64,000 nucleotides of DNA from Thermoplasmata archaeon (GTDB taxonomy: Archaea; Thermoplasmatota; Thermoplasmata; Thermoplasmatales; Thermoplasmataceae). The first letter of the stretch is position 1, and each line of letters begins with the position of its first letter. Below, piece after piece: positions 36,180 to 44,142 of the stretch. The stretch lies in assembly GCA_021835025.1 (NCBI GenBank), contig JAKBQY010000057.1, positions 61,358 to 125,357 of the forward strand, read 5' to 3'. Under the pieces are notes generated by a model. It was given only the letters and a program-made list of their open reading frames with translations, was not told where the DNA came from and ran no database searches. The position numbers and the translations under genes were made by a program.

Positions 36180-36257
36180 ATCGGACCATTTCACTACACA
36201 TATGATAACTCTTTGGACACACTGAATTTCAACACGCTATCACAATAGGTTAAATGA

Positions 36258-38510
36258 TCATATATATTTATCAAGACCATGTTCCCATAGATTTCTTAAA
36301 ATTTCCTTATTTTCACTGATTATCGTTTTTCCCATATTCTTTATTATTATATGGTCTCTTGATGTCTTTCCTATTTTTACCTTATGTATATCCTTGAATA
36401 TTTTAAGAAATTGTTCTTCCATGCTTGAATCAACCTCTATCAACATGGCTGTTCCAAGCTCAGAAAATAACTTTGTATTTGTATTACCATCAATATTTGA
36501 AATATCCGCATCAATGCCAAGATTGTTTCCAAATGACATTTCAAGCAACGACATTAAAAGTCCACCCTGTGATATATCGTGCATTGCCATTATGGTACTG
36601 TTCCCCTCATGTATTTTGTTCATTATCTCTTTCAAATGCACATAATCAATCTTTATCAGGGAAGTTGACCTTGATGAAAAGACTTCAGCGTACTCGCTGC
36701 CAGCCAGTGAATTGATGAGTTCTCCAACAAGGTAAACCGGGTCGCCTTCCTTTTTAAATTCGGATGTTTTAACCCTTCGGACATCCGAAATTGTGCCAAT
36801 CATCAAAATATTTGGTGTTGGCTTTATTTCCCTACTATCTGTTTCATTGTAAAAACTTACATTCCCAGAAACCAGTGGAAGATTCATTTTTTTGCAGAAA
36901 TCTGATATCGCGTGCGCGCTTTCAATAAAATTATACATTGTTTCAGGAACCTCCGGATTTCCGAAATTCATTGCATCAACCACGCCATTTGGAATGCTGC
37001 CTGTGCATATTGTATTCTTATATGATTCTATTAAAACCTCAATTGTCCCCTCGTATGGATCAATGTCTACAAGTTTTTCTCTGGATCCTGATGTCAGTGA
37101 AATACCAATGAATGAATCTTCAAGTGCCTTGAAAACCGAGGCATCCGAATGGGTTTCATGGTTTGGGATTCCCGTGAATGGCCTATTTATTGTATTTCCT
37201 CTTACAGTAAAATCATATTGCCTGACAATATTAAATCTTGAACATAAATTGGGCCTTTGAACAAAATCGTGAATGAAATTTATGTAATTTTCAGGTTCCC
37301 TTACAACTGTTTCAGAATTAATCCTTTCCCTTGGTTTGAAATCCCGTTTATACTCAGGTCCTGATGTTAAAAATGCCAGGTCCATGTCCATTATTTTTTT
37401 ATTCTTGTATTTGATTATTAGATTTTTATTACTGATCGTTTTACCAATAACGGAGAATTCAATACCCCATTTTTTGAATATCTCTTCTGCCTTTTTCAGA
37501 TTGTGTTCATTCAGGGCAAGTAGCATTCTTTCCTGCGACTCACTTACCCATATTTCCCATGCATTCATATTTTTATCCTTCAAAAGTACACTATCGAGAT
37601 CAATTTCTGCAGATATCCCTCCAGCGTGGAGTATTTCACTAACTGCACTGGAGAATCCCCCTCCGCCCAGATCCTTCATGCCGTCTATGATCCCAAGTTC
37701 GTTGATTTCAAGTATTGCATGTATTAGTGGTTCCTTGATAATTGGGTTTCCAAGCTGAACAGCATTTTTGTTTTCTTCATTGCTCTTGTCAAGTATTTTG
37801 GAGGCAAAATTTACTCCGTGGATTCCGTCCCTTCCTGTTCTGCCACCACATACAATAAGCAAATCGCCAACTTTATTCACAAAACTACGGACAACTTTAT
37901 CCTTTTTTACAATTCCAATGCAGCCCGCATCTACCAGTGGAATTGTATTGTATGACTCGTCAAAATCAACGGATCCCGCTATTGTTGGTATTCCTACTCT
38001 GTTCCCGTAATCCCTTATCCCCGCAATAACCCGGTTCATTATAAACCGTTCACTTAAAAATCCACTGGTATTTTCAGGATTGCCAAAATAAAGTGAATCT
38101 ACCAATGCAACAGGCTGGGCACCCATGCATAGAACATCCCGGATTATTCCACCAACACCGGTGGCCGCTCCACCGTAGGGTTCAACTGCACTTGGATGAT
38201 TGTGGCTTTCCATCTTCACAACATAGGCATAATCCTCATTTATTGAAACAACTGCTGCATCATCCTCCATGGTTAATATGGTATAATCTGATTTTAAATC
38301 TGAAAAGTATTTTTTTAAATAAATTTTGGAGCTTTTATAGCATGAGTGTTCACTCCATGCCTGAGCTACCGCCTGTATTTCAATATCTTCGGGATTTCTG
38401 CCCAGATGGATAAAATATTCCTTCAATGATTGCATCTCATTTAATGCCAGGCCGAGATTATCGCCCACGGTTTTCAATTGTTGATCATCATATCCAATTA
38501 TATCATACAT
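36258..38510 (-). CDS. purL: Phosphoribosylformylglycinamidine synthase subunit PurL
   Basis: WSEHSCYKSS, KMESHNHPS, GAATGVGG..RD, GRTGRDG.HG, DLGGGG, SESQERM, SGNVSFYNE, HDISQGG. Confidence 0.96.
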   Translation of the reverse strand: MYDIIGYDDQQLKTVGDNLGLALNEMQSLKEYFIHLGRNPEDIEIQAVAQAWSEHSCYKSSKIYLKKYFSDLKSDYTILTMEDDAAVVSINEDYAYVVKMESHNHPSAVEPYGGAATGVGGIIRDVLCMGAQPVALVDSLYFGNPENTSGFLSERFIMNRVIAGIRDYGNRVGIPTIAGSVDFDESYNTIPLVDAGCIGIVKKDKVVRSFVNKVGDLLIVCGGRTGRDGIHGVNFASKILDKSNEENKNAVQLGNPIIKEPLIHAILEINELGIIDGMKDLGGGGFSSAVSEILHAGGISAEIDLDSVLLKDKNMNAWEIWVSESQERMLLALNEHNLKKAEEIFKKWGIEFSVIGKTISNKNLIIKYKNKKIMDMDLAFLTSGPEYKRDFKPRERINSETVVREPENYINFIHDFVQRPNLCSRFNIVRQYDFTVRGNTINRPFTGIPNHETHSDASVFKALEDSFIGISLTSGSREKLVDIDPYEGTIEVLIESYKNTICTGSIPNGVVDAMNFGNPEVPETMYNFIESAHAISDFCKKMNLPLVSGNVSFYNETDSREIKPTPNILMIGTISDVRRVKTSEFKKEGDPVYLVGELINSLAGSEYAEVFSSRSTSLIKIDYVHLKEIMNKIHEGNSTIMAMHDISQGGLLMSLLEMSFGNNLGIDADISNIDGNTNTKLFSELGTAMLIEVDSSMEEQFLKIFKDIHKVKIGKTSRDHIIIKNMGKTIISENKEILRNLWEHGLDKYI

Positions 38511-38753
38511 CTAATCACTTATCTTTTCTATTTTATAATCCTGAATCACAGGATTGGTCAATATTCTTTCGGAAATTGTATTTATCTCCTCAAATGAATC
38601 GTGTTCACCAAGTGAAGTCTCAAATTCATAGACCTTATACGTTTTAACTTTTTTTATTCCGTCATAGCCCAAAAGTGATAAATTTCTCTGTATGCTAAGA
38701 GCCTCTGGATCTTCCACATTTTCCAAATATTTTACCTCAACACGGATTCTCAT
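38511..38753 (-). CDS. purS: Phosphoribosylformylglycinamidine synthase subunit PurS
   Basis: VEDPEA..I...L..LGY, LTNPVIQDY. Confidence 0.93.
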   Translation of the reverse strand: MRIRVEVKYLENVEDPEALSIQRNLSLLGYDGIKKVKTYKVYEFETSLGEHDSFEEINTISERILTNPVIQDYKIEKISD

Positions 38754-38792
38754 AAAAGGTTATGTGTAATATAAAATTAAATTTATCTATAT

Positions 38793-39743
38793 TTATTTGA
38801 TAATATATATTTGTATTTTTCTTGCTATCTGTATCATTGGCCTTATAAGCAATTGTGAACTTCCAATTATAAATAAATATACACCAAGTGTGGCATCATT
38901 ACGCGGCAAAAATAGTATACTTCCAATTACAAATTCAAAACCCACTGCAATATCATTAGCTATTGCCAGCCAGTCATAGAAACGTTGAATCTTTTCCTTT
39001 CTTATAGTTTTATACTCATTTTTTATTAATGCCTGATTGATTTTTTTATCGTTTAAAAAGATGTCCAGATGCATCATTATTGCAGAAATATAGTCATTTG
39101 ATATTAATTTTAAAAGCCCTGAAAGATAGTTGGCATCAATATTCTCAACCGATTTTGAGTAACCGTAATTGCCAGAAATGCCATCCTTTATCAGGATTAC
39201 AATCCGGATAAACCAGCTGTCTTGAAGATATTCCTCAAAATCACCCAAATCGAATTGTACCTCCTTCAGAGTTTTCTGGGAATAATCCGCAAAGGCATTG
39301 GAGTAATAAAAATCATTTGATGTTATTAATGGCACAGCAACCTTGAAATATGGGCTTTCCTGGGATGGGTTGATCATGGTGATATTTACATTTAATGAAT
39401 CAATAATTACGCTGGCTATTTTCCGGTAAAGGTATATTATTCTCATCAATCCGCCTATCTGTTTGTCCTTTGAAAAAAAATTGATTATTTTTTCAAATAA
39501 TTTCTCCTTTTCCTGCCTTCCAATATTATATCCAATATCATTTAAATTTATTACTTCCAGCAGGTTATCGCCAGCATATGTGCTTATTATATCATTTTTT
39601 TTTAACTTTTCAAGTATATCTTCGCCGAAAAGGTAAACAACAGTTTCTTTGATATCCTTCCATTTTAGTTCAAGGCCATATTGGCTTCTTTGGAGAGTAT
39701 ATAAAAAATATAGAGCAGATGGGATACTGTTATCATTTTCCAT
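38793..39743 (-). CDS. Hypothetical protein with C-terminal YrhK-like two-TM domain
   Basis: YDWLAIANDIAVGFEFVIGSILFL...LFIIGSSQLLIRP.I matches the YrhK pattern. Confidence 0.72.
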   Translation of the reverse strand: MENDNSIPSALYFLYTLQRSQYGLELKWKDIKETVVYLFGEDILEKLKKNDIISTYAGDNLLEVINLNDIGYNIGRQEKEKLFEKIINFFSKDKQIGGLMRIIYLYRKIASVIIDSLNVNITMINPSQESPYFKVAVPLITSNDFYYSNAFADYSQKTLKEVQFDLGDFEEYLQDSWFIRIVILIKDGISGNYGYSKSVENIDANYLSGLLKLISNDYISAIMMHLDIFLNDKKINQALIKNEYKTIRKEKIQRFYDWLAIANDIAVGFEFVIGSILFLPRNDATLGVYLFIIGSSQLLIRPMIQIARKIQIYIIK

Positions 39744-40164
39744 TATACATCATTTAAATATATTTAAAATAATTATTGATGATATTTCATAAAACCTCAG
39801 TTTTTTGCTTTTCAATTTGGCAATAAAAGCTTGGAAATATAGTTTTTTTCATATTATATGTTAAATAAAATAAGATTACTGACTCTATTGCCATATTATT
39901 TTGAAATGCTCTGATATAATTTCTCGTTAATTGCCTATCTTTTTAGGTGGTTTTATCACTACATCCATTATTCTTCTTTGAATTGCTGGTGTGATTTTGG
40001 TTAGCCAAACAAGTACAAAAACTTATTTTTAATTCCATATTTTTTCAGAAAATAAGATATTTTTCACAGCCGACATATAATATCTGGATGCAATAATACA
40101 CAAATGAATTATTTATTTATGAATTTTTACCGAAATATATATATATTTCTGTGTTAATATTATT

Positions 40165-41175
40165 ATGAAGAAGTTAATGAGTGTTATAGTGGCTTTAATA
40201 TTCATAATGCTGGTTTTTGTCCCTGCTGTGGACAACCACATGACAGCAAATGCAAATAAGAGCAGTAATGATAAAAATAATGAGGTTTTCCCTCCCATAG
40301 GTTCTGTAAATAACCAAATTCCAGATAATATGAGTAATGTTAAAAATTATGTTGCACATAATAATATAAATTCCATAGTAGGAAACAATAATTTACACTG
40401 GATAAAAATAAATACGAATAATAATATGAATAATACCACCGCAAGCTATGCCATTTATAATAATAAGGAATACATAAAAACAGATATAAGATCTAATATA
40501 CCGGAAGGATACCAGAATAAAGTATCAGTAATAATGGGCAAAGGTTTTGATACCATACTTAGAACAGGAACAAAAACAATTACAGTATTTACAATGTTAA
40601 GCACGCATGGAAATATGAATAATAACCTGAATAATGGTTCAACATTAATAATATCAAACGGAAAGGTGTTTATGGAGAAAATAAATGATCCATTGGCACA
40701 TAAATCATTTAGTTGGGGACAGGCATGGGTAAGTTGTGCATCATACACAGTGTATGGAAGCACAGGACTGGCTATTAATCTTGGAATAATAGGTATGGCA
40801 GCAGGATCGTTAAGGGCAGCGGTAGGCGCTCTAGCAGATGCTACTATTGCAGGAGTTGTGGGCATTCTGTCTGCTGTTGTTGTAGGGTCTTGGTCAGTGT
40901 GGGTAATAGCACATAAGACATCGAACAATGAGTATATACCATATGTAGAAATAGCGTTTTCTGAGGGAAAATGGTGGGACCCATGGGATACAGGAGCATA
41001 CGGGGAACTCGGTGCATATTCCAATCAAGCTTATGATGTTAATGGGAAACTTTCATATACTGGTCCGTATTTATACTTTCCGCTTTTAAATAGCGAGGCT
41101 TTGAATACGGGAGCGTCTGCAATAGCTTCAGCTCCGCATGGCTCTATATGGCCTTCTTTAAGTCCTCCATGGTGA
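40165..41175 (+). CDS. Secreted protein: signal peptide, Asn-rich N-domain, Gly/Ala/Trp-rich hydrophobic C-domain (candidate toxin precursor)
   Basis: MKK plus hydrophobic signal; hydrophobic stretch at residues about 201-248. Function is inferred only. Confidence 0.75.
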   Translation: MKKLMSVIVALIFIMLVFVPAVDNHMTANANKSSNDKNNEVFPPIGSVNNQIPDNMSNVKNYVAHNNINSIVGNNNLHWIKINTNNNMNNTTASYAIYNNKEYIKTDIRSNIPEGYQNKVSVIMGKGFDTILRTGTKTITVFTMLSTHGNMNNNLNNGSTLIISNGKVFMEKINDPLAHKSFSWGQAWVSCASYTVYGSTGLAINLGIIGMAAGSLRAAVGALADATIAGVVGILSAVVVGSWSVWVIAHKTSNNEYIPYVEIAFSEGKWWDPWDTGAYGELGAYSNQAYDVNGKLSYTGPYLYFPLLNSEALNTGASAIASAPHGSIWPSLSPPW

Positions 41176-41179
41176 TATT

Positions 41180-41704
41180 ATGAATTCTAAAGTGTCAGAA
41201 AAAAAGAATGTTCGAAATACGGATTTAATTGCTGTTGCCCTTTTATTAATAATAGGATCTATTGGGACTCTATTTTTTATAAGGGACTTGCATTATCTTA
41301 ATTCAAAACTTAGTATTTTCAATTTATTTACTGGGTGGATACCATGGTATCTGACCGTTTATTTATTTATCAACTTAATTGAATATATGTTTTTTTTCAG
41401 AGCTTTATATTCTAACAATTTAAAAAAAATGGCCAGAATAAGAAAAAATACAGTCCGTTCAAATATTTACATCACCCTATATCCGCTTATTTTTGGAATT
41501 CTTGGATATAGTATAGTAAGCTATTTTTCATTTGTTAATACAGGGTATATTACTCCACCTTCAACCATATTTGACAATGCTGAAAGCTTAATTGTTCTGG
41601 TTATTTGCGTAATTTCAATTCCCGTAATATTTGTTGTTACAGGCAACAGTGTTATGAAGAATGCAATCAATAAATCTAGTCTGGAATATAAAAATAAATA
41701 TTGA
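41180..41704 (+). CDS. Four-TM membrane protein (candidate immunity protein)
   Basis: Four hydrophobic segments; ATG 4 nt after the upstream stop, with GGTGA SD-like site spanning that stop. Confidence 0.72.
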   Translation: MNSKVSEKKNVRNTDLIAVALLLIIGSIGTLFFIRDLHYLNSKLSIFNLFTGWIPWYLTVYLFINLIEYMFFFRALYSNNLKKMARIRKNTVRSNIYITLYPLIFGILGYSIVSYFSFVNTGYITPPSTIFDNAESLIVLVICVISIPVIFVVTGNSVMKNAINKSSLEYKNKY

Positions 41705-41765
41705 CATGCATATTTTTGATCGTGTGAGTTAATTGCTATAGAGATAAAGTGATAACATACTCTGG

Positions 41766-41966
41766 GTGGCCCATCTAGGTATTGATTTTAGAAATAAACG
41801 ATTCACTTCCATTATTTTTATATCTTTTGCAAAAACCTTTCCCTATAGTATGGCCTTTTTATTCTTTACAATATACCTTATGAATTTTTATTTTACCCCT
41901 CCATTTGTTCTTGTATTCTCCATCTCAGCAAAATATACTCCAAACTTTGTTTTAATCTTCCAATAA
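41766..41966 (+). CDS. Small hydrophobic ORF (66 aa) or remnant
   Basis: GTG start, Phe-rich hydrophobic sequence, same strand as the preceding pair. Confidence 0.3.
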   Translation: MAHLGIDFRNKRFTSIIFISFAKTFPYSMAFLFFTIYLMNFYFTPPFVLVFSISAKYTPNFVLIFQ

Positions 41967-42117
41967 ATACCATGGTGTATAAATAAAGATTGCGTAGTAT
42001 TGGCGTATTTCTATAAAATCAGTATATTAAAGTTTAATAGATATAGTGATTTAAAGTAGTTATAAATAAAGGTAATTATTATACTTTTTTAAGTTAAAAT
42101 AGATTATTATACAATAA

Positions 42118-43200
42118 GTGAATAAAGAGATAATGGCAGATAATAATGAATTGATGCTCAAAAATATATTTTCATATTTGCTTGATTCTGTATCATACGT
42201 CATAGATAAAAAAAATAATATTACGGAATCTGATACAATACATTACAATATTGATAATGCAAAAAATGAAATAGAGAATATGAAAAATGGCATCAAAAAT
42301 ATTATGGAAACATATAATAAAAAAACCAACTATAAAAATTTTCAAACCTATTCTGATAAGATAAATGAAAATGCCAGTACAAATCTTGACCTTTTTTTCG
42401 CGGGTATAAGAGCTGAATGGCTAATGGATATTGAGAAAATAGAATTAAAGATAAAAACCGATAACGATAATGCAATTAAAAATTTATGTGAATTTTTAAG
42501 GCAAAACCCATTTACCGTAAGGGAGAAAATTATAAAAATAAATAATAGTAATGGTATCCTACATTTAATGTCCGATTATAAGTGCACTCTTGATATAGAA
42601 TATACATTTTCAACTGAATTAGTTGACAATGAATTTTTTAAAGCACCCTATTTTGCGTCACTTGGCTATAGCACCAGTATTCCCATAAAAAGAGATGGCG
42701 ACAAGATATATTATGAAGATATTGCCAAATACAGCCTGGAAAATATGGAAATCGATGATGATAAAATGATTGCATCATTTGCAAATAATAATGGCAAAAA
42801 CCATATTTATTTTGAATCCAGGAATTTTCAGGACATAGCCATTAAATTTGATGATGGAGAACAACAGGTTGATATAACATCTATTTTGGAACTTAATAAA
42901 GACCTTGATCGTGAATCAATTTTAAATGCCCTTAAAAAATTATATGAAATCACAAAGGAGGTTGAAGATAACAAGGGGGAACTTCTACATTTAACATTTC
43001 AGAATAGAGGCATACTGAAGGATATGGATATAGATGGTTTCATGGAGGCCCTTCTCTCAACTGATTACATAAAGAATGTAATGAAAAATATACCTGATAC
43101 GTCCGATGATGCCGATCAGATAACAAGGGAATTTATAATAAACAGAATAAATACACTTGGAAAGGAAGCGGAAAGATATAAAAAAATATTATTTGGTTGA
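42118..43200 (+). CDS. Hypothetical protein (about 360 aa) with N-terminal coiled-coil
   Basis: Long ORF with heptad-like segments; ATG 42133 is an alternative start. Confidence 0.75.
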   Translation: MNKEIMADNNELMLKNIFSYLLDSVSYVIDKKNNITESDTIHYNIDNAKNEIENMKNGIKNIMETYNKKTNYKNFQTYSDKINENASTNLDLFFAGIRAEWLMDIEKIELKIKTDNDNAIKNLCEFLRQNPFTVREKIIKINNSNGILHLMSDYKCTLDIEYTFSTELVDNEFFKAPYFASLGYSTSIPIKRDGDKIYYEDIAKYSLENMEIDDDKMIASFANNNGKNHIYFESRNFQDIAIKFDDGEQQVDITSILELNKDLDRESILNALKKLYEITKEVEDNKGELLHLTFQNRGILKDMDIDGFMEALLSTDYIKNVMKNIPDTSDDADQITREFIINRINTLGKEAERYKKILFG

Positions 43201-43944
43201 TTTTCTGAACAGATGGGTAAAATCAGGATTGTATAAAAATGATTTTTTATCTGAATAGGCTGATATATTTCCACCCACAAGTATAAGAGCCTGCCTGTTT
43301 ATCCTGTTTTCAAATAATGATTTTTCTATGTTGCCAATGGTTGTTAAAATAATCTTTTCATCAGGCCACGAAATTTTATATGCAATTATAGCTGAATCAT
43401 TTTCACTATATCCTGCTTCAAGCAATTTTTTAACCACATTCCTTGAATTTGATGCACTTAAAAATATTGCTATTGATGTTTTATGTCTTGCGAGCAGGGC
43501 AAGGTCTTCATTTTCAAATATTTCCGTTCTTCTTGGAACCCTGGTTATTATTATGGTCTGTGTTGTACCTGGGGAAGTGAGCTCAATTCCGATTCTTGCA
43601 GACGCAGCAAATAATGATGGAATTCCAGGTATAATTTCAAAATCCAGATTATTTTTTTTATAAAATGATATCTCATCATTTATTGCACCATATATTGCAG
43701 GGTCTCCACTATGTATTCTCGCGATATCCATATGTTTCATGTAATATTCGTACACCATTCCATTTATTTCATCTATATTTAGATCTGAGGTTCCAATGAC
43801 TGTTTTCGCCTTTGAATCTCTCAATATATCATTGTTAACAAGCGAATCTGCAAACAAGATTGCATCTGCGTTATCAATAATTCTTTTTGCTTTTATTGTC
43901 AGCAGATCTGGGTCTCCGGGACCAGCTCCAACTATATGTATCAT
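43189..43944 (-). CDS. cbiF: Precorrin-4 C11-methyltransferase
   Basis: VGAGPGDPDLLT, RIHSGDPAIYGA, ELTSP..TQTIIITR. Confidence 0.93.
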   Translation of the reverse strand: MIHIVGAGPGDPDLLTIKAKRIIDNADAILFADSLVNNDILRDSKAKTVIGTSDLNIDEINGMVYEYYMKHMDIARIHSGDPAIYGAINDEISFYKKNNLDFEIIPGIPSLFAASARIGIELTSPGTTQTIIITRVPRRTEIFENEDLALLARHKTSIAIFLSASNSRNVVKKLLEAGYSENDSAIIAYKISWPDEKIILTTIGNIEKSLFENRINRQALILVGGNISAYSDKKSFLYNPDFTHLFRKSTK

Positions 43945-44142
43945 TTTATCAGTACTATAAATTAATTATCCTTATAATATTTCTCCAATTATAGAATTTT
44001 CATTTACACAGGAATGATACTTTCTCTGAGCCATCACAAGGAACCTCTTACCCACAATTGGTAAATATGGAAAAAATCTTCTTTATAATTTTTAACACAA
44101 TTGAGTGGGAAATCCGTTTTTGAAAGATATGAGGGGCGTCAT

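Follow-up and report, generated by a model that had tools for sequence, protein, structure and literature searches.

A two-gene presence/absence cassette from a new Thermoplasmata protein superfamily encodes a candidate membrane toxin and its candidate immunity protein

Introduction

To our knowledge, molecular detail is available for very few antagonism systems of archaea; almost all are haloarchaeal and none is from the wall-less extreme acidophiles, the organisms that dominate acid mine drainage. Among systems that resemble the locus described here, the pore-forming colicins (colicin A with Cai, colicin E1 with Cei) contain a hydrophobic helical hairpin of about 40–50 residues and are paired with immunity proteins of three to four spans, which read the hairpin of the toxin inside the membrane; Cai itself has about 175–180 amino acids (aa) and four spans. 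Glycine-zipper membrane toxins include CdzC/CdzD-CdzI of Caulobacter, Tse4/Tsi4 and Tse5-CT/Tsi5 of Pseudomonas, and TspA/TsaI of Staphylococcus. The immunity protein of halocin C8, HalI, is encoded in the same precursor as the toxin, and SdpC/SdpI systems comprise the processing genes sdpAB and a polytopic immunity and signal protein of the SdpI family. We analyzed a 64,000-nucleotide stretch of a Thermoplasmata archaeon genome (GenBank assembly GCA_021835025.1, contig JAKBQY010000057.1, positions 61,358 to 125,357, forward strand; hereafter the window), which contains two adjacent genes, one for a predicted exported protein with a hydrophobic hairpin (gene 1) and one for a predicted four-span membrane protein (gene 2).

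The original prediction, made from the letters of the window, read these genes as a secreted toxin and its immunity protein, in the manner of halocin C8 and SdpC/SdpI. A further point of comparison is halocin H4, an archaeal protein toxin of about 35 kDa with a central transmembrane region that is reported to be needed for killing (bioRxiv 10.64898/2026.07.27.741052). We found that the two genes lie in a block absent from a congener and that relatives with the same layout occur in many genomes. The best explanation of these findings is a self-contained, horizontally mobile two-gene cassette from a new protein superfamily. That the cassette encodes a membrane-permeabilizing toxin and its cognate immunity protein has, in our judgement, about an even chance of being right.

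Results

The two genes form a block that a congener lacks

Positions 36249–39909 and 42088–43989 of the window match one contig (C1) of G001, a Thermoplasmata metagenome-assembled genome (MAG) of the same genus, at 81–85% DNA identity, and only about 35 bp separate the two flank matches in G001. Therefore, a 2.18-kb block holding gene 1, gene 2 and their non-coding flanks is present in the window and absent from the congener. The flanks are as long as originally noted, with 421 nt upstream and 413 nt downstream of the two genes. A third congener, G002, gives no polarity for the insertion or deletion, since its contigs end at both flanks of the cassette site. Terminal repeats or a target duplication were sought at the cassette ends with nothing convincing found, and the cassette flanks are not repeated elsewhere in the genome. 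Coordinates of the features are collected in Table 1.

Both genes are ATG open reading frames (ORFs), as first proposed, and the presence in many genomes of protein-level relatives in the same arrangement shows that they are not mere chance ORFs. The same cannot be said of a third, small hydrophobic ORF that the original prediction had placed downstream of gene 2, which is probably not a gene. Its GTG start lies inside a terminator-like hairpin, no relative of it turned up in related loci or in the genome, and gene callers left it out in six loci, of 12 contigs found, that carry an identical gene 1.

Gene 1 has a variable N-domain and a conserved C-half around a hydrophobic hairpin

At the N-terminus of the gene 1 protein, MKK is followed by a hydrophobic core of 16 residues (mean Kyte-Doolittle 2.9) and by VPA, a sequence that reads as a Sec signal peptide, in line with the initial annotation, with probable cleavage after VPA. 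A near-identical leader, M-N-K/R-K-K-V-I-I-G-V-L-M-A-A-I-F-V-M...F-V-P-A-A-D-N (window 40165–40270), heads many unrelated predicted exported proteins of the same archaeal family, including ORFs of 500–1200 aa. One example lies 3' of a related cassette (L089:1068-1607), where a predicted exported-protein gene combines the leader of the gene 1 in that cassette with an unrelated body. The leader has the look of a signal peptide typical of the lineage, and it may also be subject to exchange by recombination.

The switch from an Asn-rich N-half to a hydrophobic C-half, noted at the outset, is borne out by composition. Asn makes up 23% of residues 23–172, a region that also contains five N-x-S/T sequons, and residues 201–249 are rich in Ala (22%), Gly (16%) and Val (16%). 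The 48-residue hydrophobic string quoted earlier corresponds to residues 201–248, and the hairpin contains several overlapping small-xxx-small-xxx-small motifs of glycine-zipper-like type. Conservation follows a different pattern from the variable C-terminal domains that had been expected. Mean pairwise identity in the core family was 0.29 in the N-domain, 0.58 in the pre-hairpin segment, with H179, S181, W184, G185, A187 and W188 invariant, 0.36 in the hairpin and 0.66 in residues 250–292, the first post-hairpin segment and the most conserved region of the protein. The C-half is the conserved part of gene 1 and the hairpin is a variable island inside it.

Two Asp-Pro bonds are conserved, one at the boundary between the N-domain and the C-half (N-D-P, residues 174–176) and the other in the post-hairpin motif WWDPWD. 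Such bonds are acid-labile, a property that could be relevant to a protein exported by an extreme acidophile, and we speculate that the one at the boundary might be a maturation site. Equally speculatively, the external pH at which these organisms live would protonate acidic residues of the hairpin.

AlphaFold2 models of gene 1 had a mean pLDDT of 41 with seven sequences and 52.6 with 20, a confidence too low for the details to be trusted. At this low confidence, two helices were placed at residues 202–223 and 226–249, with beta strands directly before and after them, and the N-domain was predicted to be all-beta, with strands over residues 80–172 at a pLDDT of 65–75. The strands flanking the hairpin may form one sheet from which the hairpin projects. 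Foldseek searches of the model against PDB and BFVD returned nothing at E ≤ 0.001, and query-normalized TM-scores were at most 0.22 throughout.

Gene 2 is predicted to be a coupled four-span membrane protein

Gene 2 contains four hydrophobic segments, although a crude hydropathy count gives three to four. Stretches rich in Lys and Arg occur at the N-terminus, in the loop between the second and third transmembrane (TM) segments and at the C-terminus; this distribution fits the four-span protein originally proposed, with both termini predicted inside. Only 4 bases separate the gene 1 stop from the gene 2 start. The final Trp codon of gene 1 and its TGA stop together make up a Shine-Dalgarno-like motif, GGTGAT, the end of which lies 3 nt ahead of the gene 2 ATG. 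In at least ten related loci the junction reads CCN-CCA-TGG-TGA (CCNCCATGG-TGA), followed by a few bases and then ATG or TTG. Since the conserved Trp-TGA end forms this motif in all of these loci, translational coupling, which had been suggested for the window, is on sequence grounds a conserved feature of the family. Upstream, a TATA-like box about 25 nt before the gene 1 ATG suggests that the transcript may be leaderless.

The superfamily is confined to one family of acidophiles

We scanned gene 1, gene 2 and their neighbors against Pfam, NCBIfam, PHROGs and PADLOC, and a YrhK domain in the upstream neighbor was the only match to rise above noise. Neither gene 1 nor gene 2 had a Pfam match above noise at E ≤ 1, and the same was true of 20 family members. 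Gene 1 had no NCBIfam match at E ≤ 1, and for both genes PHROGs gave none below E = 0.02 and PADLOC nothing above noise. Sequence searches of PDB, with the single gene 1 protein and with a profile, returned only noise.

Relatives of gene 1 were found in larger collections. A word-indexed search of 5.8 billion proteins recovered six, and an exhaustive HMMER profile search of 1.84 billion representative proteins gave 23 matches, about ten of them full-length relatives and the rest fragments or proteins sharing only the N-terminal leader. Scans of genome contigs and of metagenomes added one and three loci, respectively. Gene 2 gave no convincing relatives in a single-sequence search, and its relatives were recovered by profile search only. 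The distribution is patchy, as had been anticipated: gene 1 alone matched five of 36 further genomes in its own family and, elsewhere in the order, none of 24 from other families, while the superfamily profile matched 29 of 102 other genomes of the family. Nine of the 11 genomes of one genus were positive, a single complete genome had nine matches, and several matches carried stop codons. In a class-wide sample of 301 genomes, 10 of 33 from the family matched, with one weak match among 267 from other families. With that one weak exception, the superfamily is confined to one family of wall-less acidophilic Thermoplasmata.

Distant members retain the same pattern of leader, beta domain, hairpin, Trp/Tyr-rich tail (YGE-E/L-G, PH-x-S-V-W) and terminal PPW, and a third subtype ends in PVPW. 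The genome of the window has a second cassette, of the PVPW subtype, outside the window (contig C46:16195-17282). It encodes a 240-aa predicted exported protein with a Gly-rich hairpin, the end of which is overlapped by a 131-aa ORF with several hydrophobic stretches.

The chromosomal site of the relatives differs from genome to genome among those examined; they usually stand alone between housekeeping genes, and some adjoin a serine recombinase, insertion sequence (IS) transposases or an ORF like a group II intron reverse transcriptase. These scattered positions, the company of recombinase, transposase or intron genes and the clean insertion or deletion of the block would suit cargo of a virus, plasmid or other mobile element, for instance an envelope or entry protein with a superinfection-exclusion partner, or an addiction module. 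We consider such an origin improbable, however, because no relatives were found in 2.9 million IMG/VR viral contigs or, by tblastn, in plasmid and phage records, there was no viral fold match in BFVD or PHROG match below the threshold given above, and most copies stand alone between housekeeping genes with neither an integrase nor terminal repeats.

The partner gene accompanies gene 1 and can outlive it

We then assessed the proposed pairing with a downstream membrane gene. An ORF of 67–184 aa starts between −56 and +132 nt from the stop of 22 out of 25 profile-matching ORFs; all 22 downstream ORFs have one to four predicted membrane spans, and 21 have two to four. The same two-gene layout was found in further loci from assemblies and metagenomes. 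Gene 1 is not a conserved single-copy protein, nor do its homologues lack the paired membrane gene, and either would have spoken against the original prediction. Partner proteins fall into subgroups that follow gene 1 clades, and among close pairs the partner evolves faster, with gene 1 and partner identities of 61 vs. 39%, 57 vs. 46%, 49 vs. 25% and 48 vs. 29%.

Copies also vary in number and state. One locus (L006, G005:C3:885171-888557) has a tandem arrangement of two complete modules, 299 aa + 114 aa followed by 302 aa + 140 aa, and adjoins an ORF resembling a group II intron reverse transcriptase. Elsewhere, G001 retains the 3' end of a gene 1 (43 codons, in-frame TGA), directly followed by an intact 145-aa partner, and in G084 a gene 1 stub of 16–21 codons precedes an intact partner, with no gene 1 match anywhere in the genome. 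Insertion or deletion, many copies and positions, decayed copies and orphan partners together fit conflict-type evolution. This part of the original inference of an antagonism system was supported. No homology to known toxins was found.

The hairpin co-varies with the third helix of the partner in one allele pair

In a related population, one locus downstream of thiolase and OB-fold genes has two alleles. Their DNA is 98–100% identical over the N-domain, only 55–88% identical across the hairpin, and then 92–95% identical. One strain combines hairpin A with partner genes a and b in tandem, such that two partner types stand behind one gene 1 (locus L080); these are 75% identical, with the differences concentrated in TM3. 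In the strain with hairpin B, gene 1 has a premature stop at codon 280, and the one partner that follows shares 99% identity with b. Hairpin A is also present on a third contig, where a hybrid partner retains the a-type TM3. Because the allelic differences fall in the hairpin and in TM3, and partner b is of the hairpin B type, the hairpin of this allele pair co-varies in sequence with the third helix of the partner, and the hairpin A strain holds a spare copy of the partner of the other allele.

The cassette resembles known systems in layout but is unrelated to them in sequence

Among systems with comparable parts, the pore-forming colicins share with the cassette a conserved hairpin-bearing part (the killing part in colicins), variable other domains and a small polytopic partner. 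Their specificity is read on the hairpin in the membrane, which parallels the co-variation of hairpin and TM3 seen in one allele pair. Colicins differ in having a ten-helix bundle, where the low-confidence model of gene 1 predicts beta strands flanking the hairpin, and in export through a lysis protein as opposed to a predicted Sec signal peptide. Unlike in colicins, the candidate immunity gene is on the same strand as gene 1 and putatively coupled to it in translation, and the host, an archaeon, has tetraether lipids and lacks a cell wall. The colicin pore-forming domain was rejected as a match, since there was no Pfam match in 20 members and no PDB fold match.

Halocin H4 (HalH4) of Haloferax mediterranei, at 359 aa, resembles gene 1 in being archaeal, of similar size and headed by an N-terminal export signal (predicted in gene 1), and its central Gly/Ala/Leu-rich transmembrane region near residue 180, reported to be essential for killing, could have a counterpart in the hairpin. 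The two differ in signal type (Tat in HalH4, Sec predicted in gene 1) and in the hydrophobic part, a single short segment in HalH4 compared to a 48-residue hairpin. HalH4 also lacks a coupled downstream membrane gene, and the next gene is convergent and encodes 135 aa with a single N-terminal hydrophobic stretch. Homology was rejected, as comparison with HalH4 from pHM300 gave BLASTP E > 5 and an hhalign probability of 0.2% with an 18-sequence profile. Halocin C8 was likewise rejected, with no TIGR04449 match at E ≤ 1 and the cassette partner being a separate gene, as was SdpC/SdpI, with no Pfam match above noise (E ≤ 1) and no processing genes in the cassette. For both of these, the resemblance that was originally proposed is one of layout only.

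That the cassette belongs, in diverged form, to one of the known families of archaeocins or bacteriocins (halocin H4, halocin C8, sulfolobicin, SdpC/SdpI or the pore-forming colicins) is highly improbable. The likeness in layout, with a signal peptide, a central hydrophobic region and a nearby membrane protein, would speak for it, as would a report that two Thermoplasmata MAGs encode homologues of halocin H4 bearing Sec signal peptides (bioRxiv 10.64898/2026.07.27.741052). Against this, the HalH4 comparisons were negative, no TIGR04449, other NCBIfam or Pfam match was obtained, and the exhaustive HMMER profile search gave the family itself only.

Polymorphic toxins offer a different comparison. 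As in CdiA-CT/CdiI and Rhs-CT/RhsI systems, alleles of the cassette are near-identical except for a putative specificity segment and the cognate partner, and spare partners (L080) and short 3' stubs of the putative toxin gene beside intact partners (G001, G084) occur, which corresponds to the orphan immunity genes of these systems. Their architecture of conserved N-terminal delivery and a swappable C-terminus was not found, because the N-domain is the most variable region and the C-half the most conserved. Contact-dependent inhibition (CDI) and Rhs systems swap the whole C-terminus, as opposed to an internal hairpin patch in the cassette family. Unlike them, gene 1 has only 336 aa and a variable N-domain with no large conserved delivery domain, and there is no dedicated secretion system near the cassette. 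Glycine-zipper toxins, finally, share with the cassette hydrophobic helices of glycine-zipper type and a small membrane protein encoded directly downstream, in their case the immunity protein, but these toxins are bacterial, depend on type I, VI or VII secretion systems (T1SS, T6SS or T7SS) and are unrelated in sequence.

The neighbors are resident genes

On one side of the block lie purL, purS and a YrhK-domain gene, and on the other a 360-aa gene of no recognized family and cobalamin methylases. Both neighbor genes are conserved in place in G001, and they are therefore resident genes and not parts of the module. The upstream neighbor is a 316-aa protein, 94% identical in the congener, with a C-terminal YrhK membrane domain at residues 255–310 (E = 6e-18) and an N-terminal 250 residues that match nothing, such that the original description of orphan neighbors does not extend to this gene. 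The 360-aa downstream protein is an acidic orphan conserved in the congener, for which gene callers use a later ATG (355 aa), and it had only sub-threshold matches to phage tail assembly chaperones (Pfam E = 0.003, PHROG E = 0.045).

Table 1. Positions of the cassette, its predicted parts and its surroundings; positions are those of the window unless a locus is named.
Feature	Position	Strand	Basis or remark
YrhK-domain neighbor gene	38793-39743	-	316 aa
Block with gene 1, gene 2 and non-coding flanks (2.18 kb)	~39910-42087		Absent at the same site in congener G001; edges uncertain by ~30 bp
A+T-rich TATA-like box	40133-40148	+	Sequence reading
Gene 1, 336-aa predicted exported protein with membrane hairpin	40165-41175	+	ATG ORF
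Predicted Sec-type signal peptide, residues 1-21	40165-40227	+	Sequence reading
Variable Asn-rich N-domain, residues 22-172	40228-40680	+	Low identity; predicted all-beta
Conserved pre-hairpin segment, residues 173-200	40681-40764	+	Asp-Pro and motif H-K-S-F-S-W-G-Q-A-W
Asp-Pro at boundary of N-domain and C-half (N-D-P)	40684-40692	+	Conserved
Gly/Ala/Val-rich two-helix hydrophobic hairpin, residues 201-249	40765-40911	+	Composition, AlphaFold, motifs
Conserved Trp/Tyr-rich post-hairpin domain, residues 250-336	40912-41172	+	Motifs PYVE, SEGKWWDPWDTGAYGELGAYSNQ, terminal PPW
Asp-Pro in WWDPWD	40975-40980	+	Conserved
GGTGAT Shine-Dalgarno-like motif	41171-41176	+	Last Trp codon and TGA stop of gene 1
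Gene 2, 174-aa predicted four-span membrane protein, candidate immunity protein	41180-41704	+	ATG ORF
Terminator-like hairpin and T-rich tail	41761-41789	+	Consensus scan only; hairpin 41761-41779
Small GTG ORF, 66 aa, probably not a gene	41766-41966	+	No relatives; starts inside terminator-like hairpin
Acidic neighbor gene	42118-43200	+	360 aa
Allelic cassette variants in a related population	L080:2058-3965; L081:847-2270; L078:5001-6406

Discussion

The reading to which we assign roughly even chances is that the cassette encodes a membrane-permeabilizing toxin and a cognate membrane immunity protein, by analogy with pore-forming colicins or halocin H4. It is the most economical account because it brings together a predicted exported hairpin protein, a putatively coupled and fast-evolving partner that is predicted to lie almost wholly within the membrane, the match between hairpin and TM3, and partners that outlive gene 1 or are held in spare. 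Gene 1 would be exported by Sec, with the variable Asn-rich beta domain facing outward, where it may bind a target. The Gly/Ala-rich helical hairpin of the C-half would then insert into a lipid membrane and perturb or permeabilize it. Gene 2, made in fixed proportion to gene 1 through the putative translational coupling, would act within the membrane, where it would recognize and neutralize the hairpin of its cognate gene 1, such that the pair would work like a pore-forming bacteriocin with a polytopic immunity protein. Export, insertion into other cells, toxicity and protection are all predictions from sequence.

Several observations weigh against this account. A Sec-exported protein with a 48-residue hairpin may stay anchored in the membrane of the producer, and an anchored protein fits a surface protein as well as a toxin delivered by contact or in vesicles. 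Searches of Pfam, NCBIfam, PDB, PHROG, PADLOC and HalH4 revealed no homology of the cassette proteins to known toxin or immunity families, and the gene 1 model is poor (mean pLDDT 52.6) and has no fold match. Toward the more distant members of the superfamily, Asp and Glu residues occur in the hairpin and its hydrophobicity is no more than moderate. Divergence of gene 1 was uncorrelated with that of gene 2 over the full set of 91 locus pairs (Spearman 0.09), and the argument from co-variation therefore rests mainly on one allele pair. Moreover, both cassette genes are decayed in one genome (G086), and recent deletion, as opposed to selection for immunity, could account for the orphan partner genes.

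Some of these points would be accommodated by a non-lethal cell-surface pair, in which gene 1 is a hairpin-anchored glycosylated surface protein and gene 2 its intramembrane docking or identity partner, likened to membrane-embedded identity pairs such as IdsD/IdsE of Proteus. Gene 1 could then be an adhesin, a determinant of self/non-self recognition or a variable surface antigen under virus pressure. A signal peptide with a strongly hydrophobic hairpin should favor retention in the producer membrane, the N-domain is the most variable part and has the five N-glycosylation sequons, the family is multicopy and lineage-specific, co-variation of hairpin and partner suits any cognate membrane pair, and Pfam, PDB and Foldseek searches found no toxin fold or domain. 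A surface or recognition pair would thus account for most of the anatomy and for the allelic match. The orphan and spare partners suit it less well, since a plain structural role predicts neither an intact partner beside a deleted gene 1, as seen in two genomes, nor a strain with a spare copy of the partner of the other allele, both of which are expected if the partner protects against proteins made by neighbors. In addition, the most conserved part of gene 1 is the domain flanking the hairpin and not an adhesive one. On balance, we regard a surface pair as a serious rival, at somewhat under one chance in three.

The toxin-immunity reading can be made more specific, and in this form we put it forward tentatively, as falling a little short of an even chance. 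The cassette would then represent a lineage-specific class of Thermoplasmata protein archaeocins that are exported by Sec and whose glycine-zipper hairpin enters the tetraether membrane of a neighboring cell, either directly or from vesicles, with specificity set by helix recognition between the hairpin and TM3 of the coupled four-span immunity protein. An external pH of about 1 may aid entry by protonating acidic residues of the hairpin, and could cleave the conserved Asp-Pro.

If the archaeocin proposal is true, Thermoplasmatales would gain their first described toxin-immunity system, and a polytopic immunity protein would for the first time be identified for an archaeocin. A toxin-immunity pair would show how proteins attack tetraether monolayer membranes at pH 1, and would help explain the strain-level structure of these communities. 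As a candidate system it is compact, consisting of two genes that need no dedicated secretion machinery, and the segments that may set specificity are already indicated by naturally occurring combinations (hairpin A with partner a, hairpin B with partner b). Were the two proteins a recognition pair instead, they would constitute the first self/non-self system for these archaea. On either reading, the cassette defines an unannotated protein superfamily.

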